From assembly GCA_021806925.1 (NCBI GenBank), contig JAKAPS010000007.1, forward strand, positions 1 through 53,515: a DNA stretch of 53,515 bases. The letters are read 5' to 3'. The notes below the pieces were generated by a model. The model was not told the DNA's origin, searched no databases, and saw nothing but the letters and a program-made list of their open reading frames with translations. Shown here piece by piece: positions 129 to 38,283 of this stretch (the first letter of the stretch is position 1; each line of letters starts with the position of its first letter). The translations under genes were made by a program, and so were the position numbers. The stretch comes from a bacterium (GTDB lineage Bacteria > Patescibacteriota > Dojkabacteria > JAKAPS01).

Positions 129-623
129 ATGAATAAAAAACACTCACAAATAAAGAAAACTTCATGTGTTATTTACGCTAGAGCAGCTTCTCAAGATTTA
201 TCAAAAAACGCTAATTCACTTCTTGAGCAAGTAAAACGTCTTGAAGGATATGCCCAGGTAAATCATTTAAAAATAAAAGAATCTTTCCTAGAGATAGGAT
301 CAGGTGCGGTAATAAATCCAAAACTAAAAGAAATGCTTGCATACATGGAAGCAAATGGAATAGAAAATATATTAACAAATGATATAAACCGAATTGCAAG
401 AAACGATGCCATATTTACCGAGATTTGCAATCTAGCTTATGTAAAGCAAATTACAACCCCATCCTATACCTTCCATCTTGATAATAAAGGGGATGCCCTT
501 ATGCTCACTATTCTAAGGGGTATTGAGTCTACAATGCATTCGGTTAGATCAATACAGGCTAAGCAGGCATATATCCGTGCAAAAAATAATACCTTAGAGA
601 AAAATACCCATGGAAAACACTAA
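129..623 (+). CDS. Small serine recombinase (resolvase-like catalytic domain only)
   Basis: N-terminal VIYARAAS and DINRIARN motifs of serine recombinases; no DNA-binding domain visible; overlaps the next recombinase by 14 nt. Confidence 0.8.
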   Translation: MNKKHSQIKKTSCVIYARAASQDLSKNANSLLEQVKRLEGYAQVNHLKIKESFLEIGSGAVINPKLKEMLAYMEANGIENILTNDINRIARNDAIFTEICNLAYVKQITTPSYTFHLDNKGDALMLTILRGIESTMHSVRSIQAKQAYIRAKNNTLEKNTHGKH

Positions 624-2373
624 CGATATTATTTGGTATGTTTATGCAAGGAAAAGCTCGGAAGATAAGGATAAACAAGTTCAATCAATCCCAGATCAAA
701 TTGAACGGTTGGAAGAATTTGCAGCCCGGAATGGAATGATATTGAAAAAACCATATTATTCAGAGGAAAAATCAGCAAAAGCTCCATATAAGCGACCTGT
801 TTTTGCTAAGATGCTTGAAGACATCCAAAAAGAGAGCCAGAAGGGAAAGGTACGGGTCGGAATTGTAACGTGGGCCTTCAATCGCCTCTCACGCAATCCT
901 ATCGAATCGGCATTTTTGCAGTGGATGCTCCAAGAAAAAGTAATTGCAGAAATTAGAACCTATGATCGAACATATCTTCCCGATGATAATGCATTACTTA
1001 TTAATGTAGAAAGCGGATTTGCAAATCAGTTTATTCTTGATTTAAAGAAAAATACACAGCGTGGCATTGATAGGAAGTATACATTAGGTTGGAAGCCAAA
1101 CCTTGCACCTATTGGATATAAAAATGTTGGAGAGACTAAGGGTGAAAAAACGATTGAGGTTGATGAAGTACGGTTTGATCTTGTTAGAAAAATGTGGGAT
1201 ATGATGCTAACAGGAACCTACACACCAGATCAAATTCTTACTATTGCAAGCGAGGAGTGGCATCTTACAACGATAAAAAGAAGAAGAATTGGCGGAAAGC
1301 CATTGACTCGAAGCGGAATCTATCGCATGTTTAACAACATCTTTTATACCGGTCTTATTAAAAAGAAAGATGGCAGAGAGTATGAAGGTAAACACAGACC
1401 AATGATTTCTCTTGAAGAATTTGCAACAGTTCAGCAAATCTTACATAGAGGCCAGGATGGTACAGAACAAAGAGGCAATACCACCAAACATGAACATCCA
1501 TTTACCCAAATGATCCGGTGTAACGAATGTGGATGCTTATATACCGCAGAAACAAAGAAGAAGTTTATTAAATCAAAGGGGCGATATGAGTATTTCACCT
1601 ACTACCATTGTACAAGAAGGAAAAAGACAATTAATTGTACACAAAGGCAATACATTACGTCGGGGGATCTTGAATCCCAAATTGATGCATATATTAAGTC
1701 CATCACAATACTGCCTGAATTTCGACAGTGGGCATTGGAGATTATTGGAAGAAAGAATGATATGGAAATCGAAGAGCGCCAAAATATTTATGAATTAACA
1801 GACAATGAGCTTAAAACAGCCCAGCGGGAACTGGATAACCTAACTCGGATGCGTTACAAGGAACAAATCACCGAAGATTATTATGAAAGAGAAAAGCTTC
1901 TATTACAAGCAAAGATTGCCAAATGCGAAGAAGATCTACGACATACACAACACAGGGCAAAGGAATGGCTTGAATTAACCGAGGATGCTTTCAATTTTGT
2001 CACATATGCCCGTGTACACTTCCTGACAGGTGATATTCATACCAAGAAACAAATCCTTATGGATTTAGGTAAGAACCCGGTAGTAAGGGATGGAAAGATT
2101 GTCATTGAGCTAAATGAATGGCTTCGCCCCATTGAGGAAGGGTATAAATCACTGGAAGAAAGATATCTTCGGTTAGAACCAAAAGAATCCCTTGATAAAG
2201 GGGTTAATGAAGAGATCGACCAATTATGTTTACTATGGGGTTCAAGACGAGACACTATTCGAACTCGTGACTACATTTTTAAACTGTTAGAATCGTCTGG
2301 TAAAATCTTTATAGAAATGAATTTGAGTGGAACGGATAGAATGGATTTGTTATATGCTATTAAATTTGATTAG
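610..2373 (+). CDS. Large serine recombinase / integrase (catalytic, recombinase, zinc-ribbon and coiled-coil domains)
   Basis: YVYARKSSED catalytic motif, FNRLSRN, APIGY, N.FYTG, H.PMIS, CNEC...YYHC...C zinc ribbon, coiled coil. Confidence 0.93.
   Translation: MENTNDIIWYVYARKSSEDKDKQVQSIPDQIERLEEFAARNGMILKKPYYSEEKSAKAPYKRPVFAKMLEDIQKESQKGKVRVGIVTWAFNRLSRNPIESAFLQWMLQEKVIAEIRTYDRTYLPDDNALLINVESGFANQFILDLKKNTQRGIDRKYTLGWKPNLAPIGYKNVGETKGEKTIEVDEVRFDLVRKMWDMMLTGTYTPDQILTIASEEWHLTTIKRRRIGGKPLTRSGIYRMFNNIFYTGLIKKKDGREYEGKHRPMISLEEFATVQQILHRGQDGTEQRGNTTKHEHPFTQMIRCNECGCLYTAETKKKFIKSKGRYEYFTYYHCTRRKKTINCTQRQYITSGDLESQIDAYIKSITILPEFRQWALEIIGRKNDMEIEERQNIYELTDNELKTAQRELDNLTRMRYKEQITEDYYEREKLLLQAKIAKCEEDLRHTQHRAKEWLELTEDAFNFVTYARVHFLTGDIHTKKQILMDLGKNPVVRDGKIVIELNEWLRPIEEGYKSLEERYLRLEPKESLDKGVNEEIDQLCLLWGSRRDTIRTRDYIFKLLESSGKIFIEMNLSGTDRMDLLYAIKFD
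2235..2271 (-). other. Putative att site: tRNA 3'-end mimic inside the recombinase gene
   Basis: Minus strand GTCACGAGTTCGA-ATAGT-GTCTCGTCTTGAACCCCA aligns to the tRNA-His 3' end GTCGTGGGTTCAA-ATCCCACCTTTCACCCA with a 5-nt insertion; the ACGAG/CTCGT T-stem still pairs. Confidence 0.6.
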
Positions 2374-3351
2374 AAATGTTTGAAATAAGTTCATTTTTAT
2401 TTTTAAAACCCCATCTGTCGTTGGAATATATACGTAAGGAAATCGTATTTGGACCTTTTTAGACTTATTTGATTGAATAAACTCAGCGTTATCAATAAAT
2501 AACTTTCTATTTTTTAATTGTAGATAACATCGATCGAGTGGCCAAAGGTATGGATAAAGCTTCACTTTATTTTCAATGTCTCTTCCTTTCTCAATTTGAG
2601 GTGATATTTTTCTATATTTCTCATATTTATCTGTTTTAGAGGCTAGAGATTCATTTTGAATAGTAGGGTTCAGTAGCCCTGATAGATATGATATCACATC
2701 AGAAATTAAGAAAGAAGCAGTAATTTTTTCTATTTTATACTCTAAATCAATAGCATTATCCGTATTTTCTATCTTAAAAATATGTTGACTTAAAATTCTT
2801 CCCCCATCCATCGTTTTATCCAAAAGCATAAAAGTAACAGCCGATTCACAATCGTTATTTTTCAATGCCCATAAAGTGGGCAAAGATCCGCGATATTGAG
2901 GCAATTTGGAGGGGTGAATATTAATGCTTCCGAATTTAGGTGAAAGTATAATTTCTGTTGGTAATAGCCACCAATTATTGATAACATTGATGTCTATCTG
3001 ATTCGATTTTACATATTTCTGAAATTCTTTAGTGTCTTTCAAATCAATAATCTTTATATTTTGAGAGATAATATAGTAGAGATAGTTGCTATATTTATTA
3101 TAAATTGATGAAGAAGAAAAGTTTACAAAATGCCAAATCTTATATGAAATAAGTTTTAACTTTCTGAATCTATCTATATAATGCAAAAAATATACTAGTT
3201 TAAAAAGTAAATTAGCAGGGTTAAATGTATTATGATGAATAAAATCCGGAATCAAATTTACAGCTTTAATATCAACTCTTTTGTCTTCTAACAAGAGGAC
3301 GAAAGTATTTATATCTAAACCAATATATATAACAGAATATTTTCTTTCCAT
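2350..3351 (-). CDS. Formyltransferase (Fmt/ArnA-like, 10-formyl-THF dependent)
   Basis: INIHPSKLPQYRGSLPTLWAL and MDGGRI motifs; long atypical N-terminus, so probably not the housekeeping fmt. Confidence 0.85.
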   Translation of the reverse strand: MERKYSVIYIGLDINTFVLLLEDKRVDIKAVNLIPDFIHHNTFNPANLLFKLVYFLHYIDRFRKLKLISYKIWHFVNFSSSSIYNKYSNYLYYIISQNIKIIDLKDTKEFQKYVKSNQIDINVINNWWLLPTEIILSPKFGSINIHPSKLPQYRGSLPTLWALKNNDCESAVTFMLLDKTMDGGRILSQHIFKIENTDNAIDLEYKIEKITASFLISDVISYLSGLLNPTIQNESLASKTDKYEKYRKISPQIEKGRDIENKVKLYPYLWPLDRCYLQLKNRKLFIDNAEFIQSNKSKKVQIRFPYVYIPTTDGVLKIKMNLFQTFLIKFNSI

Positions 3352-3353
3352 CT

Positions 3354-4601
3354 TTATCTTTCAAGATAGTCTTTTACTTTTTTAAAAGCTTCAAGAAGTT
3401 GATCTACTTCACTATCTGTGTTTGCTGCTGTGAATGTAAGTCTATGACATTCTTCTCCTTCTTTTACCATTGGAAATGGAGCAACGGTAACAAGTATTCC
3501 TTCATCAAATAGAATATTAGCCGTTTCTATTAATTTTTGTGTATCTCCAATATGCACTGAAACAATAGGATAGCCAGTTTTATTATGTAGTTTGAAACCT
3601 AACTCTTTTAATCCTATGATTGCTTTTTGAGTTACATCCCATAATTGTTTTCGATATATATCTCCTCTTTTTTCATTGATTTCTATACCAGTATATAGGG
3701 TTGCAAGTGAGGCTGTTGGGCATGGACCAGATAAATCATACGGAGTAGCAAATGCTTCTAAGAATGTCTTCATCTCATTTGAGCAGCCTATAAAGGCGGC
3801 AAGCGATGAGTACGCTTTCGAGCATCCACCAACATAAAGAATGTTATTGTAATCATATCCGAAGTATTTCACTATACCATTTCCTTTATGACCAAGAGGA
3901 GATTCCTCAGAAGGGTTTTCTCCAATTACTCCAAAACCATGTGCATCATCTATGTATAATAAAGCATCATATTTTTTAGCTAATTCAACTAATTTTGGAA
4001 TATTGGCATAATCACCTGTCATGCTATATATGCCATCAATAAGTATAACTTTTCTTGGATTATCTTTATGTAAATTCAATAACTCTTCAAGTTTCACAAA
4101 ATCATCTTGTGCAAAGCTTACTAGTGTGGCACCGCCGTCTCTGGCTATTTTTGAAGCCTCATACATTGTTTCATGTGCTGATTTGTCTAGAAAAAGAACT
4201 CCGGACTTTCCTACTAATGCTGGCAATACTCCAATAGAAATTAAAGTAACTGTTGGTAATATTAATGTCGTTTCCGTTCCGATAAGGTTAGCCAATTTTT
4301 CTTCAACTTCATTATAAATATGTGGGCTTGCCACAAGTCTGCACCAGCTTGGATGAACACCCCACTTTTCTATATTTGGTAGTACCCCATTCTCCATCTC
4401 TGGATCTAAATCTAGTCCTAAATAGTTGCAGGATGCAAAATCTATAACCCAATGGTCTGAAGAAGTTCTTATTTTTCTCCCTTTTATTTCTAAAGCAGTG
4501 ACATTATATTGTTTCATTGTTTTAAACATTTCCCTGATTAAACCCCTTCTATTCTCTTTCATGTTTATCTCTATGATCTTTTGTTGTGTTGCGTCTAACA
4601 T
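3354..4601 (-). CDS. PLP-dependent alpha-oxoamine synthase (BioF/SPT/CqsA family)
   Basis: DFASCNYLGL, DGIYSMTGD, IDDAHGFG and SKA (PLP lysine) motifs. Confidence 0.9.
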   Translation of the reverse strand: MLDATQQKIIEINMKENRRGLIREMFKTMKQYNVTALEIKGRKIRTSSDHWVIDFASCNYLGLDLDPEMENGVLPNIEKWGVHPSWCRLVASPHIYNEVEEKLANLIGTETTLILPTVTLISIGVLPALVGKSGVLFLDKSAHETMYEASKIARDGGATLVSFAQDDFVKLEELLNLHKDNPRKVILIDGIYSMTGDYANIPKLVELAKKYDALLYIDDAHGFGVIGENPSEESPLGHKGNGIVKYFGYDYNNILYVGGCSKAYSSLAAFIGCSNEMKTFLEAFATPYDLSGPCPTASLATLYTGIEINEKRGDIYRKQLWDVTQKAIIGLKELGFKLHNKTGYPIVSVHIGDTQKLIETANILFDEGILVTVAPFPMVKEGEECHRLTFTAANTDSEVDQLLEAFKKVKDYLER

Positions 4602-4730
4602 AACTCTGCTGTTAATATATTATCGGTTTGATTATAGCTCAAATATTTAAGAAATGGAAATGCAATATTTTCTTTATAATTGACTTGAACACTTGACATT
4701 CATGAGTTTTAAGAGTAAAAACATTCTAAA

Positions 4731-5429
4731 ATGAACATTATAATGAATATATTTAAAAGAAAGAACAAATTTACTGAAACTCCTGTTCCAGGAAGTGTTA
4801 GTGAAGAGTATTTCTATAGAATGCTTTCTCCCTATGCTTTAAAATATTCTGCGCCTTATAACATAGAGGAAGAAAGTGCACTTAAAGAATTATTATCAAA
4901 GAATAGCTTTAAGGACAATACGAGCCTTGCTGTTATAGGATGCGGAGACCTTTGGTATGTGGATTTAGCACGAAGGTATAATATGGGATATGTTGCAGTT
5001 GAACCATTAATAGACATATTTGTAAATAAATATATTCAATCATTGATTAACAGTTTTGGAAATATTTATCTTATTAAAAGTAAGTTTGGGGAGATAAATA
5101 GTAATAGTTTGCCGTCAGGGAATTTACTTTGGGTTTTTACGTTTAATATACTCGCTTATATTGAAAACCCTATAGAACATATCAATAAATATTTAAGGCA
5201 AGGAGATATTTTATTCATATCGTCCTGGTGTCAAAATAAAGAAGCAAAATATGTTAGGAAAGAGTATTTTGATTATCTAAATAGTTTTGAGCGTGAAGTT
5301 GTTATCAATCCAGAAGAAACAATTGGTTTGTGTAAGTTAGATATTTTCCCTTTTAATGAACTTAAGTACTATAAGACGCATATACGAATAAAAGGTAAAA
5401 TTACTGATGTCCTTATAATTTATACTTAA
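4731..5429 (+). CDS. Class I SAM-dependent methyltransferase-like protein
   Basis: LAVIGCGD motif-I-like loop followed by YVAVEP; YLRQGDILFIS resembles the L..GG motif. Confidence 0.55.
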   Translation: MNIIMNIFKRKNKFTETPVPGSVSEEYFYRMLSPYALKYSAPYNIEEESALKELLSKNSFKDNTSLAVIGCGDLWYVDLARRYNMGYVAVEPLIDIFVNKYIQSLINSFGNIYLIKSKFGEINSNSLPSGNLLWVFTFNILAYIENPIEHINKYLRQGDILFISSWCQNKEAKYVRKEYFDYLNSFEREVVINPEETIGLCKLDIFPFNELKYYKTHIRIKGKITDVLIIYT

Positions 5430-5432
5430 TAT

Positions 5433-7019
5433 ATGAGATACTTACTGCATGATGTTTTCCTCAAATCGGTTAGAAAATTCCCTAAAAATATTGCAATTTA
5501 TGAAGAAAATGGCAATGAAATAACATATACCCAACTCAATACGTTATCAAATCAATTCGCTAATTATTTAAGTCAATACAAAGGAGAGATTAGGAATAAT
5601 CCATTTGTTGGAATAATTTCTCCTGTACATATTAATAGTATTGCATCGATACTTGGAGTTTTAAAAATAGGTGGTGCATATATTCCTTTAGATGAATATT
5701 CTCCGGTTGATAGACTTGAAAAAATTATAGAAAATACAAAGTTAGACGTAGTTTTGGTAGACTCTCATTATTTTGAAAAATATACTTCATTGTTCGATAA
5801 TTCTTTGATAAAAAAAGTTATACTCTTGGATAATAATATCCCAGATTGGCATAACGAAAAAATTGTCAGTTTTGAAACAGTAAAGTCGTTTTCAGATACG
5901 GAACCTAATACATTAAATCAGGTATGCGATGATCTTGCATATATTTTACATAGTTCAGGGTCAACCGGTGTTCCAAAGGGAATTATGCTAACTCATAGAA
6001 ATGCTAGGACTTTTGTTGATTGGATGCAAAAAGAGTTCGCATTAACAGAAAGTGATGTTGTAATGTCAAGAGCACCATTTAAATTTGATTTATCTGTATT
6101 TGATATCTTTAATACACTGAATGTGGGAGCAAAGTTAGTCTGTTATGACTGGAATAATAAAAGGGAAGAAGATGAGAGGCATAAATCATATGTACGGTTA
6201 ATGTCTGCCCAAAAGGCTACAATCCTTTACACAACACCATCCACATTTATCTCTTTAATGAATAGAGGTGAGTTAGGTAAGTCAGATATTTGTTTAAGAG
6301 AAATAATGTATGCTGGAGAACCGTTTCCTACTCCACTTATAAGGAGATTGCAATCTATATTACCAAATACTAAGATTGCTAATATTTATGGGCCAACTGA
6401 AACAAATATTATTACCTATTATTGGATTGATGAAATTCCTGAAAATAATACCCCTATACCCCTAGGAAGAGAAGTTGAAGATACAGAAATCTTAATTGTA
6501 AAAGAAGAGGGTGATAGAATTTGTGATGCAAATGAACTTGGTGAAATATGGTGTAGAGGTGGGACTGTTACTTTAGGGTATTTGGGAATGGAAGAAAAAA
6601 CGAGATTATGTTTAGTTGATAGCCCTTTTCACAAATACCCAGCAAAGTTCTGGCGAACTGGTGATTATGGATTTAGGGACGAGAAAGGAATTTTGCACTA
6701 TAGAGGGAGAAAAGATCATATGGTAAAAGTAAAAGGATTTAGAATAGAGCTAGGAGAGGTTGAATCTGCTTTATCTAACATAGATGAATTGGATGAATTT
6801 GTTGTAGTGGCTATCCCTGATGAAAAATATGGTAATAGATTATATTGTTATTACGTAAATAAAAAGGGGCATTCTCTATCAGAAGAAGATATTAAATCAT
6901 TTCTTCTAACGAAGATACCAGAATATATGACTCCTTATAAATTTATTGAAAAAGAAATTCTTCCTAAAACTTCCTCTGGTAAGATTGATCGAGTGTTACT
7001 AGCAGAAACTACTATTTAA
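5433..7019 (+). CDS. Stand-alone amino-acid adenylation domain (NRPS A-domain / DltA-like)
   Basis: ITYTQL, GAYIPLD, AYILHSSGSTGVPKG, FDLSV, NIYGPTE, RTGD, GRKDHMVKVKGFRIELGEVE and LPKTSSGKIDR core motifs. Confidence 0.93.
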   Translation: MRYLLHDVFLKSVRKFPKNIAIYEENGNEITYTQLNTLSNQFANYLSQYKGEIRNNPFVGIISPVHINSIASILGVLKIGGAYIPLDEYSPVDRLEKIIENTKLDVVLVDSHYFEKYTSLFDNSLIKKVILLDNNIPDWHNEKIVSFETVKSFSDTEPNTLNQVCDDLAYILHSSGSTGVPKGIMLTHRNARTFVDWMQKEFALTESDVVMSRAPFKFDLSVFDIFNTLNVGAKLVCYDWNNKREEDERHKSYVRLMSAQKATILYTTPSTFISLMNRGELGKSDICLREIMYAGEPFPTPLIRRLQSILPNTKIANIYGPTETNIITYYWIDEIPENNTPIPLGREVEDTEILIVKEEGDRICDANELGEIWCRGGTVTLGYLGMEEKTRLCLVDSPFHKYPAKFWRTGDYGFRDEKGILHYRGRKDHMVKVKGFRIELGEVESALSNIDELDEFVVVAIPDEKYGNRLYCYYVNKKGHSLSEEDIKSFLLTKIPEYMTPYKFIEKEILPKTSSGKIDRVLLAETTI

Positions 7020-7506
7020 CCTATTTACTATGAAAATTGGATTAATTGTGGCAATAAAACCTGAAGCTGACAGAATTGCATTAGCACTTGGTCTTACTCA
7101 GGTTGAAGTGCAGGATTATTCATACTGTATGTATACTAATCCTGATAATAATATCATTATGCTTACTCCTGGAGCTGACCCAGCCTTTATTGCTTACGAC
7201 AATCAGCCGGTATGCCGCGCAGGAAAAGTGTCAGCAGGAATCATTACAACAATATTAATTGAAAGATATCATCCTGATGTAATTATAAACTGCGGAACTG
7301 CTGCTGGAATTGCAACGAATAATGTTCATATAGGAGATATTGTTGTTGCAAATGCTGTTGCAAATCATGATATACATATTCCTCTACCAGGCTATGATGC
7401 TTATGGCATAAGAAAGATAACTTTAAAAGGAATTGAACTGTTTGAAAGAATAACATTTCCATATAAACAAGGAACAGTATCTAGTGGAGAATCTTTTACT
7501 AGTGGA

Positions 7507-8325
7507 TCAATTCTTAAGTAAGGTAACATTGGTTAAGACATTGCCAATAAGAGTATCAATAGCTTTTGAATCAGTGATAGACCAATGGTATGGTTTTGCT
7601 AATGTGTTTGTATAATAGATAATATACTTTTCAATTTTTTCTTTTAGATCTTGTATAGAGGTAAAATTACCTCTTCTAATGACTCTTCGAGAGAATGATG
7701 AGAACCAGCATTCAATAGGATTAAGCCAAGAGCAATGTTTTGGGGTAAAGACAAATCGTATCGCATGAGTGGTGTCAGAAAGATATGCCTTACGAGTTTT
7801 CTTGTTTTGTAATATCCCACTTTTCCCTTTGATTCCTAATGCTTGTGTATCTCCCAGTCGTTTTGCAACCTCTCTGACAATACCTTCTGACATATGAGTA
7901 TTCAAATTATCTTCCATAATGATCCACCCTTTGGCATTAGGATCAGAGTCAAATAGCGTTTGCATATGCTCAACATAATCCTTTTGTGTACGGGTTTTGG
8001 CAATGGTAGGAGAAATGATATTTCCTGTGGCTACATCCATATTGGCGGTTAAACATTGTGTCCCATGTCGTATGTAATTATATTCTCCTCTTTCTACTTT
8101 TCCTTCCTGGATAGGTAATATGACACCATCTCGTTGTATCGCTTGTATCGCTTGTATTCCTGGTTTCTCATCAATACTTATCGTACGTATTCCCTTCTGT
8201 GAATATGCTATTGCCTCTTTTCTGATTTCACATATCTGCCTCACTTCATATCTAAATGCTTCTGGATCTTCTATATGGGGATGTTCCCATAAGGCATACC
8301 CATTTGGATTAATATCTGCTCTCTT
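7507..8325 (-). CDS. IS630 transposase, DDE domain (frame open from 8325; ORF track starts it at 8244)
   Basis: SIDEKPGIQA, YIRHGT, DNLNTH and FTPKHCSWLNPIECWFS motifs. Confidence 0.92.
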   Translation of the reverse strand, partial: KRADINPNGYALWEHPHIEDPEAFRYEVRQICEIRKEAIAYSQKGIRTISIDEKPGIQAIQAIQRDGVILPIQEGKVERGEYNYIRHGTQCLTANMDVATGNIISPTIAKTRTQKDYVEHMQTLFDSDPNAKGWIIMEDNLNTHMSEGIVREVAKRLGDTQALGIKGKSGILQNKKTRKAYLSDTTHAIRFVFTPKHCSWLNPIECWFSSFSRRVIRRGNFTSIQDLKEKIEKYIIYYTNTLAKPYHWSITDSKAIDTLIGNVLTNVTLLKN

Positions 8326-8797
8326 TTAAAAAACGACCCACATGAGCAGGGGATATACTGACTACATACCCCAGATCACTCGCTGCCTGTGCAAGGGACA
8401 CATGTGTCCAATTTGTTATGGGGACTCCTACACTTTCTGGCCTTTGTTTTGCCAATGATCGTATTTGTTCTTTTTCTCCTTCACTAAACTTCTTTGGATG
8501 ACCTGACTTTGGTTTATCCCACAACAATCTCATTATTGCTTCTTCATATTCTTGCTCTGATAATGAGCTTAGCGCTAATCCATTTCTCTCTTCCTCTACA
8601 CTATTCCATTCTTTTACCCAATGCCATACACTTTTTCTACATATTCCTAATTCTTTTCCTATTTGAGTCGGTTTCTTCTTCTCTCCATTCTTCTTTATTA
8701 TACTCGCTCTTTGACGTATTGAATATGATATACTTCGTTTTGATGATATCTTTGTTAGAGCTTTTAACTCCTTTTCACTTATTTCTGTTTCTAACAT
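8309..8797 (-). CDS. IS630 transposase, N-terminal HTH part
   Basis: HTH, DKPKSGHP and P...GVPITNWT..LA motifs; ends just after a T6A4 slippery run where the downstream frame begins. Confidence 0.88.
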   Translation of the reverse strand: MLETEISEKELKALTKISSKRSISYSIRQRASIIKKNGEKKKPTQIGKELGICRKSVWHWVKEWNSVEEERNGLALSSLSEQEYEEAIMRLLWDKPKSGHPKKFSEGEKEQIRSLAKQRPESVGVPITNWTHVSLAQAASDLGYVVSISPAHVGRFLKESRY

Positions 8798-9216
8798 ATG
8801 GGGCTTTTTTATGTATATGTATATCTCTATACTATCACACCGTTACCACTCTTGTGAATCATTCCACTAGTAATCATGATGAATGGGAAACAATGATAAA
8901 GAACAATACCTATGCAAAAGAAATGGAAGCTGCTGGAGTTATTCAAGCTACTGAAATACTGAAATTCTCTAATACTATATACATTATTAAGGCTATTACT
9001 GACCAAGAAAGTGAAGAGTCATCAAATACACAACAAGCAAGTGATTTTGTAAATAACTTTGAATTGGCTATGAAAAATTTATGTCAGTTTATACTTGAAA
9101 CGGTTAAGGTTATAAAGGAAGACTTTTGAGAATAAACCTTAGGTAATTTTATTACATTGGGTTCGAAGTCCCATCTTGGGGTGTCCAGAAGTGTTGATTT
9201 GAAAGGGAAGAAAAAA

Positions 9217-9294
9217 TGGGTGAAAGGTGGGATTTGAACCCACGACCCTCTGTTCCACAGACAGATGCTCTAACCAAGCTGAGCTACATTCACC
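9217..9294 (-). tRNA. tRNA-His (GTG)
   Basis: Cloverleaf with encoded G-1, anticodon arm TCTGT-CTGTGGA-ACAGA, T-arm GTGGG-TTCAAAT-CCCAC; one T:T mismatch in the acceptor stem. Confidence 0.95.
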
Positions 9295-9414
9295 AAACAA
9301 ATAATATACCATCTCATTTTATCAAATTTCGGTAAAAATAGGAATTAGAAGATCAGGAGTATTTAAAATATGTAAGTACCAAGAAATATAGTAGAATTAA
9401 TTACATATCTTGTA

Positions 9415-9444
9415 TTGACTAAAACAGATAATACAAGATATAGT
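9415..9444 (+). promoter_or_regulatory. Putative sigma70 promoter of pyrG
   Basis: TTGACT-N18-TATAGT, 9 nt upstream of the ATG at 9454. Confidence 0.55.
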
Positions 9445-9453
9445 TGTTTAAGA

Positions 9454-11079
9454 ATGAAAACACAAAAATTCATATTTATTTCTGGCGGAGTTATATCAGG
9501 ATTGGGAAAAGGTATTGCATCAGCTTCAATAGGAATGCTTTTAAAAAATAAAGGATATAGTGTCAACTTTATAAAATGTGATCCATATTTAAATGTTGAT
9601 GCTGGAACTATGAACCCGCTTGAACATGGTGAAGTTTTTGTAACAAAAGATGGATATGAAATGGATATGGATGCTGGACACTATGAAAGATTTGCAAATA
9701 TTGAATTGACAAGAGATTCTGGTATGACTTCAGGACAAGTATACTTAAGTGTAATAAATAAAGAAAGAAGCCTTGAATATGATGGAAAATGTGTTGATCC
9801 AGTACCATATCTTGTTAATGAAATAATACAAAAAATAGAGGAATTTGCAAAAAAAAGTAATGTCGATTTCATCCTTATAGAAATGGGAGGAACAGTAGGG
9901 GAGTACCAAAATGAAATATATTTTGAAGCTGAAAGAATGATGAAACGAAAATATGATGGAAGTATAACTCACATACATCTTGTATATTTACCAATTCCAC
10001 ATAATCTAGGTGAAATGAAAACTAAACCAGCTCAACAGAGTGTGAGAATATTAAATGGTATGGGTATTTTTCCAGACCTTATTCTTGCAAGAAGTGAAAC
10101 TCATCTTGATAAACAAAGAATAGGCAAATTAGCATTAGGTTGTGGGATACCGGAAGATTTTGTATTTAGTGCTCCTGATGTCTCTAATATTTATGAAATT
10201 CCAATAAATTTTGATAAAGAAGGAATAGTTGAGAGGATATTATCAAGATATAAAGTGAAACCCAATACAACAGAAAGTAACAAATTAAAAAAATGGAATA
10301 TAGCACTAAGAAAAGCTAAAAATGCAAAGAGGAAAATAAAGATAGGTATAGTTGGAAAATACATTGCATCGGGGGACTTTAATTTAGAAGATGCCTATGC
10401 AAGTGTTCTGGAATCAATCAAACATGCTTCATGGTATTATGATGTTTCACCTGAAATAGTGTGGGTTGATTCAGAGAAATTTGAAGAAGAAAAACAATTA
10501 AATAATATTAATTGCCTAATAGTACCAGGTGGATTTGGGTCGAGAGGTGTAGAAGGTAAAATAAAGGCAATAAAATATGCAAGAGAAAACAGAGTACCAT
10601 ATTTAGGATTATGCTATGGAATGCAACTTGCTGTAATTGAATTTGCTAGAAACGTTTGTAACATAGAGAATGCAACATCAAGTGAAATTGATAAAAATGC
10701 AAAAGATCCGATAATACACATAATGACTGATCAGGAAAAAAAGATTCTTAACAGAGATTATGGTGCATCAATGAGATTAGGGAATTGGAATTGCAAGATA
10801 ATTGACAAGAAATCTAATGCATATGATGTATATAAGTCCGACATAATTACTGAAAGGCATAGACACAGGTATGAATTCAATAATAACTACATTGATATAT
10901 TAATTAATCATGGATTAAAAATAACTGGAACCACAACCGATGGTAAACTTGTAGAAATAGTTGAATTGGATAAGAAAGTACATCCATACTTTATAGGCGT
11001 ACAATTTCATCCAGAATTTAAATCCAGCCTTATAAACCCTCATCCGTTGTTTCTAGGCCTTATAAAAGAATGTATTTGA
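9454..11079 (+). CDS. pyrG: CTP synthase
   Basis: KFIFISGGVISGLGKG, DPYLNVDAGTMNP.EHGEVFVT, GLCYGMQ, ERHRHRYE and QFHPE motifs. Confidence 0.98.
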   Translation: MKTQKFIFISGGVISGLGKGIASASIGMLLKNKGYSVNFIKCDPYLNVDAGTMNPLEHGEVFVTKDGYEMDMDAGHYERFANIELTRDSGMTSGQVYLSVINKERSLEYDGKCVDPVPYLVNEIIQKIEEFAKKSNVDFILIEMGGTVGEYQNEIYFEAERMMKRKYDGSITHIHLVYLPIPHNLGEMKTKPAQQSVRILNGMGIFPDLILARSETHLDKQRIGKLALGCGIPEDFVFSAPDVSNIYEIPINFDKEGIVERILSRYKVKPNTTESNKLKKWNIALRKAKNAKRKIKIGIVGKYIASGDFNLEDAYASVLESIKHASWYYDVSPEIVWVDSEKFEEEKQLNNINCLIVPGGFGSRGVEGKIKAIKYARENRVPYLGLCYGMQLAVIEFARNVCNIENATSSEIDKNAKDPIIHIMTDQEKKILNRDYGASMRLGNWNCKIIDKKSNAYDVYKSDIITERHRHRYEFNNNYIDILINHGLKITGTTTDGKLVEIVELDKKVHPYFIGVQFHPEFKSSLINPHPLFLGLIKECI

Positions 11080-11102
11080 TTAAGAAATGTGTAAATTTCC
11101 CT

Positions 11103-12272
11103 TTAGAATTGTTTTTGTATAATATTTGCCTTCAAATAGAAATACGTTACAAATAGTAAAGAAAATAACTGAACTACAAATAAATATGTATATGGGAAAT
11201 TATTTCCACCAAAAAGATATTTTTCATAAGTCATTATACTTACGAACTGCAGTGAAATATATACAAGAAATCTCTTTGGAAATCTGAGAATATATATTAT
11301 TGAAAACACATCTGCAGGGAATATATATCTCTCATGCATTTTTGGAAGGAACGTAGGAACAAGAATCAAAAGCATAAGAACGATTGATAATATATTTTCA
11401 GTTGTCATTTTAACCTTCAACTTATATGAAACAAATAATAATGTTAGGATTAATATGAACGTTATAATAGTACCACCATCAACATAGTATCTAAAACCAT
11501 TTACATTTGTAGGTAACAATACATATATACTTGCTGCATTTAGTGTTAGTTGATGGTTAGATGAAGCCTGGTCTATATACACACTTATTAAATTCCATAG
11601 ATTATTTCCAACAAGAATTGATGGAATAAATGATATAAAGTATGGAGCTATAAGTAGTGGAAGAGAAAACCAGTTTAATTCTCCAGCAATAAAGAAAAAT
11701 CCATATATAGGCAAGAAGAATACTGCTTGTAACTTAAATGCAAATGCAATTCCCCAGAATAAATAACTCCATCCTAATTTCTTATTTAAAAGGAAATAAA
11801 ATGAAAACAATAAGAAAAGAACATAGGACATATCAGCCTGTCCCCAAAGTGAACCATTTAATACAACTGTAGGAGTAAATAGAAATATACTTAAACAAAT
11901 GAATATTATATATAGTAAATTTTTGCGATTACTCTTAAACATTTCTATAACTATTAAACACATTGGAATACATGCAAGATAATCAAAAATTATTGATATG
12001 TACTTTACTGCAGTTAGCGGTCTGATCTTAAAATATGAAGCAGTAACTAGAAACCACAGGTATGGAGGGTTATAGTTAGAGAAATTTGTTTTTAATGCTA
12101 ATATATGGCTGTTATTAATAATATATTCATACCATGTCCTCAAGTACACATCATAATCACCTGATTTAAAATAGAAAAAGTGAATTCTTAGAAATATTGA
12201 GAAAGCTATTATTATACTCCATATAAATACTAAATAAATATCCTTGATATTGAATTTTGGGTTTTCATCCAT
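11103..12272 (-). CDS. Polytopic GT-C membrane glycosyltransferase (mannosyltransferase-like)
   Basis: Many TM segments; NYNPPY, WGQAD, FKLQA and MHERY motifs. Confidence 0.75.
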   Translation of the reverse strand: MDENPKFNIKDIYLVFIWSIIIAFSIFLRIHFFYFKSGDYDVYLRTWYEYIINNSHILALKTNFSNYNPPYLWFLVTASYFKIRPLTAVKYISIIFDYLACIPMCLIVIEMFKSNRKNLLYIIFICLSIFLFTPTVVLNGSLWGQADMSYVLFLLFSFYFLLNKKLGWSYLFWGIAFAFKLQAVFFLPIYGFFFIAGELNWFSLPLLIAPYFISFIPSILVGNNLWNLISVYIDQASSNHQLTLNAASIYVLLPTNVNGFRYYVDGGTIITFILILTLLFVSYKLKVKMTTENILSIVLMLLILVPTFLPKMHERYIFPADVFSIIYILRFPKRFLVYISLQFVSIMTYEKYLFGGNNFPYTYLFVVQLFSLLFVTYFYLKANIIQKQF

Positions 12273-27672: not shown

Positions 27673-27683
27673 CAAAATACATA

Positions 27684-29297: not shown

Positions 29298-29409
29298 AAA
29301 ATTTAACTACTTGAATCATTATATATAATAAAATATATTAATGGATAATATTCTTCTAATAGTTTGAGAAATAGAAGAAAAACTGCTAAACAAAAAATTA
29401 ACTCAAATG

Positions 29410-29488
29410 CAAAAAAGAAAATAATAGAGTAGAGAAAAAAAGTAAAGAAGAAGAAGAAGAGAGAGAAAAAAAAAAAAAAAAAAAAAAA
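29410..29488 (+). repeat. Purine-rich low-complexity tract ending in A23
   Basis: (GAA)n and (GA)n repeats followed by 23 consecutive A (29466-29488). Confidence 0.85.
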
Positions 29489-29624
29489 TAGATTTGCTTA
29501 TGTTATAATTTTTTAGATTATTTTTGAATTGATTTTGATACTTATATTTATCTTATTTGAAACAAAAATAAAGCAAATGAAGTATATATTTTATAGTTAG
29601 TAAAAATGATGTAATTAATTTGAA

Positions 29625-31025: not shown

Positions 31026-31038
31026 AGGATGGGTTATT

Positions 31039-31863: not shown

Positions 31864-32043
31864 ATTCTATTTACACATACTTTTTGCAAGTATATATTTA
31901 AATAACATATAGGTACACATTATTGAATTAACAGCACAATAATGCATAAATTATCAACTACATACACGTTATATCTATAAATTATCCTGTAACTGAATTC
32001 ATATTTTAAAATATGCTAAAATATACACAGAATATATATTTTA

Positions 32044-33567: not shown

Positions 33568-33682
33568 TGATGATAAATGCTGCTAAAAATTGTTTGATAA
33601 CTGATTGCTATAAATAGAATAGAAATTACAGGCACTATAAAAAATATCAATTAGAATATATAATATATTTAAGAAGTAATAC

Positions 33683-35212
33683 ATGTATAAACAATTCCTA
33701 TTAGCATTTTTTCCGTTTTTAGTTATATTCTTAATAATATTCGGAGCAATCAAATATCCTGAGGTAACAATAATTGGATTACTTCTATTCAATATGTTTT
33801 GGGTAACAAAACTAATAATTCAGAACTATGAAATATATAATACATCCAAGCTTATAAATTACTTCAAAAACATCAATTTATATGATGAGATATTAAACAG
33901 CAATTCACTTAAGATATTAGATGAAAAACCAGTTCCAAATTCATTTTATTCAAAATACATAAACTCACATATAAATGCGTCAATATATTTTAAATTATCA
34001 AAAATTGAGCATCTCATTGTAATTCCAGAATACAAAGAAAATAGCAAAATACTTGCAGATACACTTGAGTGTATAAAAGGGCAACAATTCCCAAGTGATA
34101 AGATTCATATATGTATTGCACAAGAGGATAGGGATTCTGAAAAAGATGAAACTTTCAATGAATTACAAAGAAAATATGGGAATTGTTTTAAATCATTCTT
34201 TAGAACTAACCATATAAAAACCGAACATGAGATAATCGGGAAAGACTCTAATCTTCATTCTGCAAATAAAGAGATACAAAAAAGATTTAGTAATGAAGAA
34301 AAAGATAATATTATGGTAACTGTACTTGATGCAGATAATAGGATTGTTAACCAAAATTATTTGGGGCAATTGGCTTTTATGGCATCTATTGAAGAAGATA
34401 ATACATATACAATGTATAAGGGTATTAATTTCTTCTATGGCAACTACAAAGATATTCCATTCTATGAGCGTGTTGTTGCATCTCAATTAAGTATGTGGAG
34501 TTGTGGAAATAGTATATATTCATATGTAGCCCCTATTTCATCATACTCATACATACTATCTAAATTAGATAATATTGCGTGGGATGGGAGAACAATAAGT
34601 GATGAACAAGAACTCTTTTTCAATGGAGTAAACAAGTATCCTGATAAATTCAAAATATTACCTATATTTCTTCCACTTTATTTATCAATGCCAAGTCAAA
34701 GCTTCTATTTTCTAAATAACTTTATTCCATTATATAAACAATTTCTTAGACAATTGTATGGTGCGGTTGTACTTGATACTAAATTAATTGAGGATATACT
34801 GAAAAACTCTAACATTGGAATATATAGAAAAATTGCATATATCTACTACATGTTGGACACACATATTATGTGGCCAGTAACTATAGTGGCACTATCATTT
34901 GGAGTTGATATGTTCTATTTATTTGATAAATCATTTGTTTCAAGTGGTATTGGACTTACAATAATAAACCTACAGAATATAATTCTAATATTTGCAGTCA
35001 TACTGTATGGAATAACGATATTATTTGATATTCGATTCAGATTTGAATACAGGGAATCACACTTTAAACCATCAAGAGAAATCTTTCTTGCTTTTGGCTG
35101 GATATACATGCCAGTTATTCAGTTCTTTATTGCTTTTGTTCCATATGTGGAAATTGCAATTAGGATACTTATAAATAAACCATTACAACACATACCAAGT
35201 GAAAAAAGATAA
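33683..35212 (+). CDS. Membrane GT2 family glycosyltransferase
   Basis: VIP.YKE, GK.SN, LDAD, SDE and a degenerate QxxR motif; flanking TMs. Confidence 0.75.
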   Translation: MYKQFLLAFFPFLVIFLIIFGAIKYPEVTIIGLLLFNMFWVTKLIIQNYEIYNTSKLINYFKNINLYDEILNSNSLKILDEKPVPNSFYSKYINSHINASIYFKLSKIEHLIVIPEYKENSKILADTLECIKGQQFPSDKIHICIAQEDRDSEKDETFNELQRKYGNCFKSFFRTNHIKTEHEIIGKDSNLHSANKEIQKRFSNEEKDNIMVTVLDADNRIVNQNYLGQLAFMASIEEDNTYTMYKGINFFYGNYKDIPFYERVVASQLSMWSCGNSIYSYVAPISSYSYILSKLDNIAWDGRTISDEQELFFNGVNKYPDKFKILPIFLPLYLSMPSQSFYFLNNFIPLYKQFLRQLYGAVVLDTKLIEDILKNSNIGIYRKIAYIYYMLDTHIMWPVTIVALSFGVDMFYLFDKSFVSSGIGLTIINLQNIILIFAVILYGITILFDIRFRFEYRESHFKPSREIFLAFGWIYMPVIQFFIAFVPYVEIAIRILINKPLQHIPSEKR

Positions 35213-35289
35213 AAATAAATCTAAAAATTGTATTCACAAATACAATCCAAATATAGTATAATACAAACATATAAGAAGATAGGTATTAC

Positions 35290-35363
35290 GCTCCAATAGC
35301 TCAATAGGATAGAGCGACTCCCTTCTAAGGAGTAGGTTTACGGTTCGAGTCCGCATTGGAGCA
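35290..35363 (+). tRNA. tRNA-Arg (TCT)
   Basis: GCTCCAA/TTGGAGC acceptor, anticodon arm ACTCC-CTTCTAA-GGAGT, TTCGAGT T-loop. Confidence 0.95.
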
Positions 35364-36727
35364 TATTTGTGGAATTACATACTCTACAGGTGGGAATTTT
35401 CCTTCAAAAACAGTGTTATTTGTAGATTCGATCCTGCTTTTTTCATCCAAAATCTCTTGAGTTCTATTTTTCAACACGAAGACCGTTTCTTCCAGGTCTA
35501 TAGTGAGTTTTTTTATCCTTTAATAAAAATTTCGATCCTAAACGGGCAAATATTTCCCTTTTAGTTTGGATATCACCATATTCAAATCTTCTTCTTGCCT
35601 TAGACCAAAAGTTCAATACATCAATAACTTCATCTGCTCCTTTGTTCTGATTTTCATTTAATTCATTAATAGCTGAAAGAATCTTGTCTTTCTCCTTTGT
35701 ATATTTAACTTTCCTTTCTCTAAATTCCTCATCAGTAAGTATATCTGGATTATTTACTTTTAAATCAATCAAAGAGTTCAATCTAGTTACTACAACCTCA
35801 TAATCCTTCTGTAGTTTATTTAATTGTGATTCTATAAGCTTTCTATCTTCGGCCACATTATCTTTAATATATTTCTCTGCCCAATCTATGTACTCCTGTG
35901 GAATATCAAGATTATTCATTAAATCTAGTGCTGTGAGTTCTATGTATTCGACTGTTGCTCCTTTCTTTTTCTGAGCACATGTAACCCCAACTTTTCTTCC
36001 AGTACAATGATAATAGACATGATCTTTTATACCACCGCTAGTTAGTAATCTTTGCTTTTCTGTAGCAGTAATCATAGCTCCGCAATCACATTTTATAACA
36101 CCTGTAAATGCAAAATCATGTGTTTTAGGTCTTGGTTTTCCTTTTCTTCCTAAAATAAGTTGTATTTTGTCATATTCTTCAGGGGGCATTAAAGGAGTAT
36201 GAGAACCTTTATACCATACACCACCATATTCAAATTCCCCATAATAGAAAGGGTTTGTAAATATTTTATAAGCAGTACTATTTTGTAGCTTTATTCCTTT
36301 TGGAGTAATGAAGTGATATTGCTCATTCATGATATTTATTATCTGTGGCACTGTATAAAGACCTGTAAGCATCATATCCACCATCTTACGAAGTAAGGGG
36401 AACCGTTCTTCATCAACAAAAACAGCTTTCTTACCTTTCTCTCCAGTAAAGTCACATTTATAGCCTAAATTCGGTAACCCTGGTTTAAATCCCTTCTCTG
36501 CTTTTGAAGTTAATCCCCGTTTTACATTCTTCGCTAGATCAACAGAACTTTGAGTTGCCATACCAAATTCTATTGTCAGAATGAGTTGGTCAGCAATTGT
36601 ATACACTCTATCATTCGTTATAATCTGCCTAAGTTTTCCTTGCATCAATAACGCTAAAATAGTACCCCCATCAATGGGATTTCTTGCAAGTCTATCTGCT
36701 TTCCAGCAAAAGATTGTATCGTACTTG
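35325..36727 (-). pseudogene. Large serine recombinase remnant (catalytic N-terminus lost, frameshift near the C-terminus)
   Basis: Homology starts at KYDTIFCWKADRLARNPID with no YxRxS motif upstream; NPFYYG and zinc ribbon present; removing one base from the A7 run (35508-14) continues the frame, collinear with 610-2373, into the antisense tRNA-Arg. Confidence 0.85.
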
Positions 36728-36917
36728 CTCCTATTGACTGCCCCATCTCCCTAACAACTGCGAGGTCTTTTTGTACTTTTGCGGCAAGTAATCCATATCC
36801 TAACTCAGTAGATAAAATAATAAGCTGTTGCAATGCCATTTCTCTAGCAGCTCGAGGATCCATTCGAGCCATCTCTATTTTTGCCTCTAAAGGCATGTCT
36901 CCATAATTAGTTGCCAT
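36654..36917 (-). CDS. Hypothetical protein, probably a deletion chimera
   Basis: Its last ~25 codons are out-of-frame recombinase sequence. Confidence 0.4.
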   Translation of the reverse strand: MATNYGDMPLEAKIEMARMDPRAAREMALQQLIILSTELGYGLLAAKVQKDLAVVREMGQSIGASTIQSFAGKQIDLQEIPLMGVLF

Positions 36918-36986
36918 AATTGATAAACATCATATAAATCAACAGGAAGATTTTAACAAAATCAAATAATCACTGCAATAAGAAAA

Positions 36987-37619
36987 TTAAACAGCTATAG
37001 TGCCATCAAACTTTGCCATCTTGTTCATAAGAATGTTTGTAATACTCTTTGGCACAATCTGGTCTTGCCTCACACCTACATTTGCCAAAAAGTCCTTAAT
37101 TATTTGTTTTGAATTTTCCGCATTTTCTTGCGAAGTTATTATCTCTATTTCCGTAGCGACTCCAAAATCTTCTATATATTCCATATTTACCGTCATTTTT
37201 TTCTCTTCAATATAAAAAGATTTTCTTGTTTTCTTTAATCTAAAAAATGGTTTAAATCCAATTGCCTTAAATATCAAATAGCTCTCTTCCAATGACCCAA
37301 TATCAGTTTCATGCTCTTCCCAAGCATTATGATCACCATAATTAGTTATTACCTTTATATTTAAATAAATCTCTTTCTTTCCCTCCTTTTCTTTTTCTCT
37401 TAACCTAAGGCTATATGAGCCCACCTCATTCATCTCAATCTCAGAAAATTCTTTAACTTCATTTCTGCAAAAATATAAATCAATCAATTTTTCTTCTCCC
37501 ATATATTTCCCTTCTCCAGCTTCTAACCTTTTAAAAAGTATCTTTGCTTGTGATTCTTCTAGTATTGCACGAATTTCAACTTCAATGTTTTCGTTTGTAT
37601 TTCTTTTATGTATAATCAT
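36987..37619 (-). CDS. CYTH domain protein (class IV adenylate cyclase / triphosphate tunnel family)
   Basis: IEVEIRA, DLYF, LRLR, E.ET, KKTR and EIE motifs. Confidence 0.85.
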   Translation of the reverse strand: MIIHKRNTNENIEVEIRAILEESQAKILFKRLEAGEGKYMGEEKLIDLYFCRNEVKEFSEIEMNEVGSYSLRLREKEKEGKKEIYLNIKVITNYGDHNAWEEHETDIGSLEESYLIFKAIGFKPFFRLKKTRKSFYIEEKKMTVNMEYIEDFGVATEIEIITSQENAENSKQIIKDFLANVGVRQDQIVPKSITNILMNKMAKFDGTIAV

Positions 37620-37664
37620 ATAAGTATTATTGGTATTTTAACCTATCATTATAATCTATTGCAA

Positions 37665-38234
37665 ATGGATAAGAGAATAGTGTTTTTAACTTTTTCGAAC
37701 AAAGAATATAGGCAAAGCCCTAGCAAATATGACAATTTAATTTCACTCATCGAAAAAGACTGTAACTGCGAGATTAGACATAAGTGGTTTGAAGAAGATC
37801 CGGGGAGGACCCCAGAACAGATCTATAATAGATCGTTAATAGCAATAAAGGCCGCTGATATATTTATAGCAGAAATATCTTCACGATCCACCAGTATAGG
37901 GTCACAAATAAGTTATGCTTTAAATTTGAAAAAACCTGTCTTTGCTCTACTCGATGAAAGTACTGAGACTTCGAAAGATTCGCTTTTTCTAAAAGGTATT
38001 CAATCTCCTTATCTAAAAATTATTTATTACAATAATCTCAACGATTTATCTCAATCTTTATGTAATGCAATCAATACTCTAAAACCTGATAAATTAGAGA
38101 AGTTCAATTTTGTGGCTACAAAGTCAATAAAAGAATCTCTTTTCAGTGAGAGTAGAAAGCGTGGTATGTCAGTATCGCAACTACTGAGGCATATCATTGA
38201 AGAATGGATTAATAATCAAAAACAAGGTGAATAG
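37665..38234 (+). CDS. Nucleoside 2-deoxyribosyltransferase/DNPH1-like domain fused to a C-terminal ribbon-helix-helix
   Basis: IKAADIFIAEIS..STSIG.QI.YAL..KKPV motif; KFNF...ESRKRGMSVSQLLR.II RHH; start placed at the ATG at 37665. Confidence 0.75.
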   Translation: MDKRIVFLTFSNKEYRQSPSKYDNLISLIEKDCNCEIRHKWFEEDPGRTPEQIYNRSLIAIKAADIFIAEISSRSTSIGSQISYALNLKKPVFALLDESTETSKDSLFLKGIQSPYLKIIYYNNLNDLSQSLCNAINTLKPDKLEKFNFVATKSIKESLFSESRKRGMSVSQLLRHIIEEWINNQKQGE

Positions 38235-38253
38235 ACTCACTTCTTTTTAGTAT

Positions 38254-38283
38254 TGCGGTTCGAACTTCGTCCACGAGAGAGCA
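38254..38283 (+). other. Putative attR: tRNA-Arg 3'-end mimic
   Basis: TGCGGTTCGA-ACTTC-GTCCACGAGAGAGCA versus tRNA TACGGTTCGA-GTCCGCATTGGAGCA. Confidence 0.75.

Follow-up and report, generated by a model that had tools for sequence, protein, structure and literature searches.

How does a serine integrase gene come to end across the 3′ end of a tRNA gene, and why does a look-alike of that tRNA end recur with five extra nucleotides? Both questions are raised by a contig of 53,515 nt from a bacterium of the Dojkabacteria (Patescibacteriota; contig JAKAPS010000007.1 of assembly GCA_021806925.1), which is hereafter called the window at its full length. It belongs to a genome of 0.93 Mb with 30% G+C, assembled in 23 contigs and carrying 41 tRNA genes, and ARAGORN detected in the window a tRNA-His(gtg), a tRNA-Arg(tct), two tRNA-Ser and one tmRNA. 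The window bears two members of a large serine recombinase (LSR) family in which the 3′ end of the LSR gene lies antisense to the 3′ end of a tRNA gene; one is the intact integrase gene at 610-2373 and the other is a degenerate copy at tRNA-Arg. A first-pass annotation of the window had proposed that the T-loop and acceptor end of the tRNA gene act as attB, and that a tRNA mimic with a 5-nt insertion acts as an arm of attP. Judging from the sequences compared here, it is highly probable that these genes belong to islands which are targeted to tRNA 3′ ends by an LSR, carry attP inside the integrase open reading frame (ORF) and have a T-loop motif shifted by +5.

The putative att site inside the integrase gene

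The integrase gene at 610-2373 (+) encodes an intact protein of 587 aa with the Pfam domains Resolvase, Recombinase and Zn_ribbon_recom, and its putative unsplit attP is located at codons ~524-555. The catalytic domain (PF00239, residues 10-156, E = 3.9e-15) contains Y12, R14 and S16, which are unchanged in all 27 aligned homologues, and S16 would be the serine nucleophile according to its position. It is followed by PF07508 and then PF13408, with C304, C307, C334 and C343 invariant across the aligned homologues. Residues 211-343 align with the A118 integrase chains 4kis and 6dnw, the comparison with the A118/LI integrase (4kis) giving an E-value of 6e-8. The AlphaFold2 model presents the usual LSR architecture of catalytic domain, recombinase domain and zinc ribbon, the last interrupted by a long predicted coiled coil at 369-473 (helices 369-416 and 422-473; predicted local distance difference test, pLDDT, ~80-92), and residues 524-587 have a pLDDT <50. 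By its domain content and predicted fold, ORF 610-2373 is a true LSR. The integrase phylogeny, which is a quick tree only, nests it in the clade of integrases fused to tRNA-His.

Relatives were collected by scanning one genome per species, which led to 43 loci, mostly from Patescibacteria metagenome-assembled genomes (MAGs). At 30 of these loci a tRNA gene lies antisense to the LSR ORF, which terminates within the 3′ end of this gene or immediately abuts it. The tRNAs concerned are His (16 loci), Gln (three), Asp (two) and nine that were found once each (Glu, Leu-taa, Arg-tcg, Arg-gcg, Gly-tcc, Ser-cga, Ser-gga, Ser-gct and Trp), amounting to 14 anticodons. Six loci are unsplit (L024, L026, L033, L034, L043 and L044), the ORF runs off the contig end in three, and the other four are L027, which adjoins a tRNA-Asp-like 3′ fragment, the ambiguous L037, the decayed L045 and L047, which is not a member. 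The genome of the window itself bears fused copies at tRNA-Gln(ctg) on contig C10, tRNA-Pro(cgg) on C23, tRNA-Gln(ttg) on C3, tRNA-Asn on C9 and tRNA-Arg(tct) in the window. With Arg-tct, Pro-cgg and Asn-gtt from this genome and Lys-ttt from L043, the anticodons number 18 overall, and at least six of the 41 tRNA genes of this genome are or were formerly occupied. In the quick tree, near-identical integrases occur in MAGs labelled as different classes of the candidate phyla radiation (CPR), which points to recent mobility. No integrase relatives were found in viral_contigs with two different queries.

The state of the integrase gene differs between unsplit and integrated copies. In seven unsplit genes (six relatives and 610-2373) the mimic adjoins the integrase body without interruption and encodes part of a tail, W-x4-[DEK]-x-[VI]-R-T, and the opposite strand of this conserved tail reads GGTTCGAAC, then a spacer and an acceptor end like that of a tRNA. 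Integrated copies have the integrase body joined to the tRNA (attL), and the P arm and the detached tail are situated at the far end of the island, for instance as WGAVVEEVRTIFEKRNDATIYIP..., where the P arm is followed on the antisense strand by the detached tail with its conserved sequence VRTxFxxRNDxTIYIP. This distribution supports the earlier assignment of the tRNA end to the B arm and of the mimic to the P arm. It also agrees with the expectation that homologues should end in one of two ways, as they end either in an antisense tRNA (with [DE]-[SL]-N in ORFs that extend as far as the T-loop) or in [DEK]-x-[VI]-R-T. A scan for the peptide [DEKNQ]-x-[VI]-R-T upstream of 32 fused loci detected P-arm ends in 12 of them, for 11 of which the upstream DNA was extended to as much as 20 kb. 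L032 was added by pattern, and the other 19 had no far-end P arm within the upstream DNA scanned. The islands range from 2.9 kb (the Arg island of the window) to ~14 kb; the cargo of one comprises a copper ATPase, DUF305, NERD and an AbiU2-like protein, and L006 holds an ORF of 744 aa (L006:4731-6965). Within the genome of the window, P arms were also located on C3, on C14 (195-227) and on C21 (4085-4117). The orphan P arm on C14 may pair with tRNA-Pro. On C9, an integrase fragment fused to tRNA-Asn lies at the contig start (C9:1-397), and the P arm on C21 matches it. Synteny with relatives offered no empty-site comparison, as identity in the flanking protein is only 23-27% for the 30 nearest genomes.

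Could another recombinase move these islands, such as a tyrosine integrase leaving direct repeats of the tRNA end, with the serine recombinase as mere cargo? L011 and L014 have exact copies of 16-17 nt of the tRNA 3′ end, without the T-loop, at 130-190 nt past the P arm, and these copies are of the kind left by tyrosine-integrase islands. However, these repeats are situated beyond the island ends that the P arms mark, the 2.9-kb Arg island has no other recombinase, and every integrated copy has its integrase gene interrupted precisely at the junction, so that we consider this explanation extremely improbable.

According to the model proposed here, attP would be located within the integrase ORF on the antisense strand, ~30-45 codons from its end. 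Its P arm would be a look-alike of the tRNA 3′ end, consisting of a GTTC(G/T)AAC T-loop-like motif, ~15 variable nt and the last 4-7 acceptor nucleotides, with CCA included where the target tRNA gene encodes it, and the B arm of attB would be the tRNA's own T-loop and acceptor end. Integration would leave the host tRNA intact, because the P′ side would provide the last bases, the CCA and often a terminator hairpin. It would also strip the integrase of its last 30-45 codons, which would move to the far end beside the P arm (attR), and the integrated integrase would gain a short replacement tail from the antisense strand of the tRNA.

Concerning the P′ arm, the candidate of the window lies within the integrase ORF at 2171-2235 (-) and contains a terminator-like element, made up of a hairpin at 2190-2203 and a subsequent T-run, as well as a second GGTTCTAACC motif at 2171-2180. 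The conserved Trp codon of the integrase is the antisense of CCA, and the far ends of L015 suggest that the CCA borne by P′ matters where the chromosomal tRNA gene lacks it. The 55 nt after the tRNA, which are inside the integrase ORF, form a strong hairpin in 13 of 33 loci (z < -2). These hairpins typically have a GNRA-loop stem (often GAAA) followed by a T-run, and a T-run of at least four was present in 24 of the 33. On the protein side, the terminator-like hairpin corresponds to an 'EAFAS' motif. Additionally, a second T-loop-like motif, GTTC[TCG]AAC, was found 59 nt past the CCA on the P′ side (range 55-70) in 23 of 33 fused loci, where 0.02 per locus would be expected by chance. It usually encodes R-L-E-P/L, and in L038 and L042 it stands in another reading frame (K-V/I-R-T), a change which hints at a role of the motif at the DNA level. 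Integrase ORF, att site, CCA end and tRNA terminator overlap densely on the same bases.

The +5 spacing and the probable crossover

The offset between the arms was assessed in 23 P arms from 17 tRNA loci, by anchoring both arms on the T-loop pentamer and aligning tRNA nt 66-74 at offsets of 0-10. Offset 5 was the sole best in 19 of the arms and tied best in four, so that the +5 spacing is conserved in homologues even when the offset is left free, as the first-pass annotation had anticipated. The same annotation had spoken of two independent loci; all P arms are homologous, however, and the spacing is hence one inherited trait of the family and not a repeated invention. Patterns with fixed spacing presuppose the +5, and they served to locate sites and not as evidence for the spacing.

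The cores that attL and attR have in common measure 4-10 nt, such as GAGCA in the Arg island of the window, GAGCCA in L006, TGTACCA in L031 and, in the His islands, CACCC to CACCCCAAGA. With identity limited to this length and 14 anticodons among the 30 fused relatives, the suggestion that many tRNAs can be targeted in the absence of a long repeat is well borne out. The cores overlap at tRNA nt 71-73, as read by eye, which would place the crossover at about these nucleotides. Counted from there, the T-loop (nt 53-61) takes half-site positions 11-19 in attB and 16-24 in attP, and the same positions, 16-24 in attP and 11-19 in attB, are given for the zinc-ribbon motif of the LI integrase (PMC3783163). 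This agreement in register is the main support for a zinc-ribbon role of the T-loop. By analogy with the LI/A118 integrase, the zinc-ribbon domain would read the T-loop motif at 11-19 (attB) and 16-24 (attP), and the 5-bp offset would be what distinguishes attP from attB. Of the earlier equation of the T-loop with the zinc-ribbon motif, the register thus stands, whereas the binding by the zinc ribbon is something that we infer. A motif 5 bp closer to the centre in attB was seen in the left arms only.

Several observations weigh against the proposed model. All P arms are homologous and their spacer falls in a region coding for a conserved peptide; the +5 could thus have been inherited once and held constant by constraint on the protein and not by the geometry of the DNA. 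For the P arms of the His group, likeness to the tRNA is confined to the T-loop-like motif and the last 5-7 nt. When the tRNA arm served as query (gaps 0-12), similarity scans gave a clear top P arm in only one of 28 loci (L006, 23/31, gap 5) and then in only one of 11 extended upstream regions (L031, 18/27, gap 5); eight of these regions remained at the level of the opposite-strand control, and the top matches in those of L011 and L014 were gap-0 tRNA fragments. No inverted T-loop motif was seen where symmetry would place one in P′ or B′. Both dinucleotides at nt 71-73 are palindromes in the two tRNA-Asp systems, meaning either that their register is different or that orientation is set by something else. 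The predicted empty attB of the Arg island had 0 matches in metagenome_contigs, and the predicted circular attP junction of L011/L023-type His islands had 0 in metagenome_contigs and 0 in viral_contigs. Finally, neither a tRNA nor a second integrase is present within 8 kb of L024, L026 and L033.

The strongest form of this doubt is that the mimic is merely a conserved piece of protein (W-x4-D-x-V-R-T), its T-loop likeness and +5 being inherited accidents and the zinc-ribbon motif lying elsewhere. The homology and coding nature of all P arms would be accounted for in this way, and so would the facts that in the His group the central part of the P arm does not mirror the target tRNA and that the detached tail past the arm is also conserved as protein. 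However, the arm abuts the crossover, inside the ~25 bp covered by any LSR half-site, and the spacer is never a codon longer or shorter in the 23 arms, though its residues vary. Moreover, the pLDDT <50 predicted for this part argues against a folded, constrained peptide, and the register equals the published 11-19 and 16-24 positions. We therefore hold the protein-piece explanation to be improbable and retain the model of a tRNA-like P arm.

The Arg and His loci of the window

The tRNA-Arg end, tRNA-His and both of their copies are present in the window with the coordinates and strings reported for them in the first-pass annotation. Concerning the Arg locus, tRNA-Arg(tct) at 35290-35363 (+; ARAGORN) forms the attL junction, and the core that it has in common with attR is the GAGCA at 35359-35363. 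The degenerate integrase at 35325-36750 (-), recognized from its ORFs with Pfam Recombinase and partial Resolvase domains, shows 35% identity to residues 85-496 of the intact integrase 610-2373. It lacks approximately the first 85 residues, the catalytic serine included, and has a frame shift at an A7 run (~35508-35514), and its last frame runs antisense through the 3′ end of tRNA-Arg (...ICSNADSNRKPTP). The cargo (36987-38234) consists of a CYTH-domain protein at 36987-37619 (-) and a second protein at 37608-38234 (+), which is nucleoside 2-deoxyribosyltransferase-like with a match below the Pfam cut-off. At the far end, the P arm of attR is located at 38256-38283 (+), where the last 23 nt of tRNA-Arg (35341-35363) recur with 5 extra nt after TTCGA. 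The detached C-terminal tail of the integrase, identified by the peptide scan at 38209-38283 (-), reads CSLVDEVRTAILKRSESIHLVFDY and then a stop, with the motif as in unsplit integrases. With 18/23 at gap 5, this mimic is the best non-self match in the window for gaps 0-10, the next one (17/23) being another tRNA gene, and in the offset test offset 5 was best with 5/9 (next best 3).

By these features the Arg locus (35290-38283) is a decayed and dead integrated island of 2.9 kb, with attL and attR and with an integrase that lacks its catalytic N-terminus. The two loci had been described as one design, which is right as to the shared family but not as to their state, the Arg locus being an attL/attR pair and the His locus an unsplit attP. 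Similarly, both mimics had been said to fall at the homologous codon of an antisense recombinase. This applies at the His locus, inside the intact gene, but at the Arg locus it is the tRNA end that sits at this codon, and the mimic, at a distance of 2.9 kb, codes for nothing more than the detached tail. Just beyond the far end of the Arg island, Pfam recognizes an AbiEii-type toxin gene at 38678-39558, which may be another accessory patch, and the small ORF upstream of it may be its antitoxin.

At the His locus, the 3′ end of tRNA-His(gtg), located at 9218-9293 (-; ARAGORN), is the candidate B arm for the 610-2373 integrase. The tRNA-His-like mimic, which would be the P arm of attP, lies inside the integrase ORF at 2236-2271 (-; previously quoted as 2271-2238). 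It measures 23 nt from TTCGA to the end of the CCA, against 18 nt in a CCA-encoding tRNA gene, and the codon of W543 (2236-2238) is the antisense of this CCA. The offset test gave 7/9 matches at offset 5. When the 5 nt are removed, the mimic scores 19/29 against tRNA-His, which is rank 3 among the 41 tRNAs of the genome, with better scores against Ala-tgc (21) and Val-cac (20), and the His copy is not significant on its own similarity. The mimic is assigned to tRNA-His because 16 of the 43 homologues sit on tRNA-His and the integrase falls in the His clade.

A segment of 6.8 kb (2374-9157) extends from the P arm to tRNA-His, with ORFs of which three have Pfam matches. Its genes include a formyltransferase-like one, and an aminotransferase-like and an AMP-ligase-like one (both by eye). 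A nucleosidase-like gene, recognized by eye from its translation at 7030-9129, is interrupted by two IS630-like transposase ORFs (7507-8797) with Pfam DDE_3 and HTH domains. A decayed P-like arm at 9158-9190 (-), 12 nt past tRNA-His, reads TTCAA, 22 nt to the end of CACCCCA and then AGA..., at an offset of +4, and is probably the scar of an earlier island.

Tandem arrays at other loci offer a frame for this layout. L043 contains an unsplit integrase whose P-arm core matches tRNA-Lys and, 2.3 kb from it, a full-length second integrase fused to tRNA-Lys. In the genome of the window, an array on C3 (7700-19351) starts from tRNA-Gln(ttg) and comprises an integrase fragment, an unsplit decayed integrase with a Gln core in its P arm, and two more P arms. 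Tandem P arms were also found in L015 (three) and L023 (two). Within the loci examined, no second integrase was found near the unsplit L024, L026, L033, L034 and L044. The tandem arrays imply that a tRNA arm with almost any right flank is usable as a target. Apart from these arrays, L043 has an extra inverted P arm with a tail (L043:3589-3740), joined to a copy of the P′ sequence of the neighbouring integrase, and the segment between these P-arm copies, which are 2 kb apart, could be invertible.

We lean towards reading the His locus as an unsplit attP at the inner junction of a tandem array at tRNA-His. The segment 2374-9217 would then be a younger island, inserted at the tRNA end ahead of the older one, and its own integrase would have been lost later. 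One result weighs against such an array, namely that no integrase remnant was found in 2374-9157 or beside tRNA-His (tblastn E > 0.29). In the likely source run one contig spans 98-12000 unbroken at an even depth of 37, with no joint at 2240 or 9216, which counts against the proposed model in general; this check covered window 1-12000 in the contigs of three runs from one study, and it is weak evidence, as contigs drop rare variants. The first-pass annotation had regarded 9216-2240 as a circular junction, which does not fit this layout, since such a joint would instead arise by deletion or excision of the 7-kb segment and not from a circle carrying this integrase.

Alternatively, the attP at 2236-2271 and the attB at tRNA-His could be a live pair in direct orientation, with a 6.8-kb cassette that can be deleted or captured, and whose deletion would leave the integrase fused to tRNA-His. 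The intact integrase of the His clade and the tRNA-His 6.8 kb downstream in the needed orientation are both in line with this, and the layout recurs in L043, where a matching tRNA lies a few kb downstream of an unsplit integrase. Yet the second integrase of L043 is fused to that tRNA, as a tandem array predicts, an active attP x attB pair should not persist, and the flank after tRNA-His is unlike the B′ or P′ arms of the His group. The missing joint in the likely-source contigs, weak as this evidence is, points the same way. A live pair appears unlikely to us, and the inner junction of a tandem array is preferred.

The start of the window was also inspected. A resolvase-domain-only ORF of 164 aa at 129-623 (+; Pfam Resolvase, E = 4.6e-12) overlaps the integrase start by 14 nt. 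It was rejected as a conserved partner gene, since no relative has a separate copy upstream, and all its tblastn matches elsewhere were to the N-terminal domain of the integrases themselves; it is probably the N-terminal remnant of another recombinase gene. An insertion sequence of ~1 kb, with two copies and terminal inverted repeats, occupies window 1-127 and is also found at the starts of C1, C4 and C12. At 1-127 it breaks the assembly immediately upstream of ORF 129-623, with housekeeping genes beyond, and it is the sole joint in the likely-source contigs over window 1-12000. The insertion-sequence ends of C12 and C1 pair with a 5-bp target duplication and those of C4 and C19 pair without one, which suggests a rearrangement beside the integrase.

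Comparison with known systems

The Islander paper of 2014 stated that serine integrases were not known to use tRNA genes (PMC4383910). In its accessible part, the tycheposon preprint counts 27 of 937 elements with a large serine recombinase and gives no site details, and the accessible part of Integrase-On-Demand contains nothing on tRNA-targeting serine integrases. The main text of Durrant et al. (PMC10083194) does not use the word 'tRNA'. In searchable full text, which leaves subscription journals and supplementary files outside, we found no description of serine integrases that target tRNA genes or of an attP inside a serine integrase gene. The family appears to be a CPR-wide serine-integrase variant, of which we found no description later than the Islander statement.

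As to how the target is recognized, we tentatively propose that the family reads it with one half-site, the zinc ribbon contacting the T-loop and the recombinase domain the acceptor end, with the right arm nearly free, although we rate this possibility as rather doubtful. If it is true, a few changes in the contacts with the acceptor end would retarget the enzyme to any tRNA, and the 18 anticodons would be a natural retargeting series. An attL, consisting of a tRNA and any flank, would remain a target, giving tandem islands whose inner integrases are rebuilt with the tail of their neighbour. The tail swap, together with the second GTTCYAAC motif 59 nt away, would act as a switch between an integrating and a resident form of the enzyme. 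Serine integrases are valued for genome engineering on account of their short sites and their independence of host factors, and their specificity is hard to read or change. With one universal arm derived from a structure and the rest co-varying with 18 tRNA ends, this family would supply matched pairs of integrase and site for a recognition code. It would also be an independent natural test of the model of a 5-bp zinc-ribbon shift, and it would show a route by which metal-resistance and defence islands move among CPR bacteria.

Among phage LSRs with solved att-site recognition, the integrases of A118/LI, Bxb1, phiC31 and SPbeta have the same domain order of resolvase, recombinase and zinc ribbon with an inserted coiled coil. 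They use short att sites that share few crossover bases, as the family described here appears to do, and their distal motif is 5 bp more remote from the centre in attP than in attB (PMC3783163), as in the left arms here. Unlike them, the family described here would target the 3′ end of a tRNA gene, with the universal T-loop as distal motif, and would carry attP in the integrase ORF, so that integration swaps the C-terminal tail of the enzyme. The motif is present here in left arms only and the right arms look unspecific, and the P′ arm would carry CCA and a terminator for the tRNA.

Islands of the P4 and Islander types, which are moved by tyrosine integrases, are similar in that they insert in the 3′ part of a tRNA gene and restore it, have the integrase beside the tRNA and form tandem arrays. 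They differ in their unrelated enzyme family and in the long identical tRNA fragment of their attP, which leads to a direct repeat, whereas the family presented here has an identity of 4-10 nt, a +5 look-alike at the far end and a serine integrase, and is therefore outside the definition of an Islander island. Finally, the SSV1-type tyrosine integrases of archaea have their attP within the int gene and target a tRNA gene, and integration splits the integrase gene. That split removes a large part of the enzyme, while in the family described here it would detach only the last 30-45 codons, in a region predicted to be disordered, and would leave the folded domains intact.

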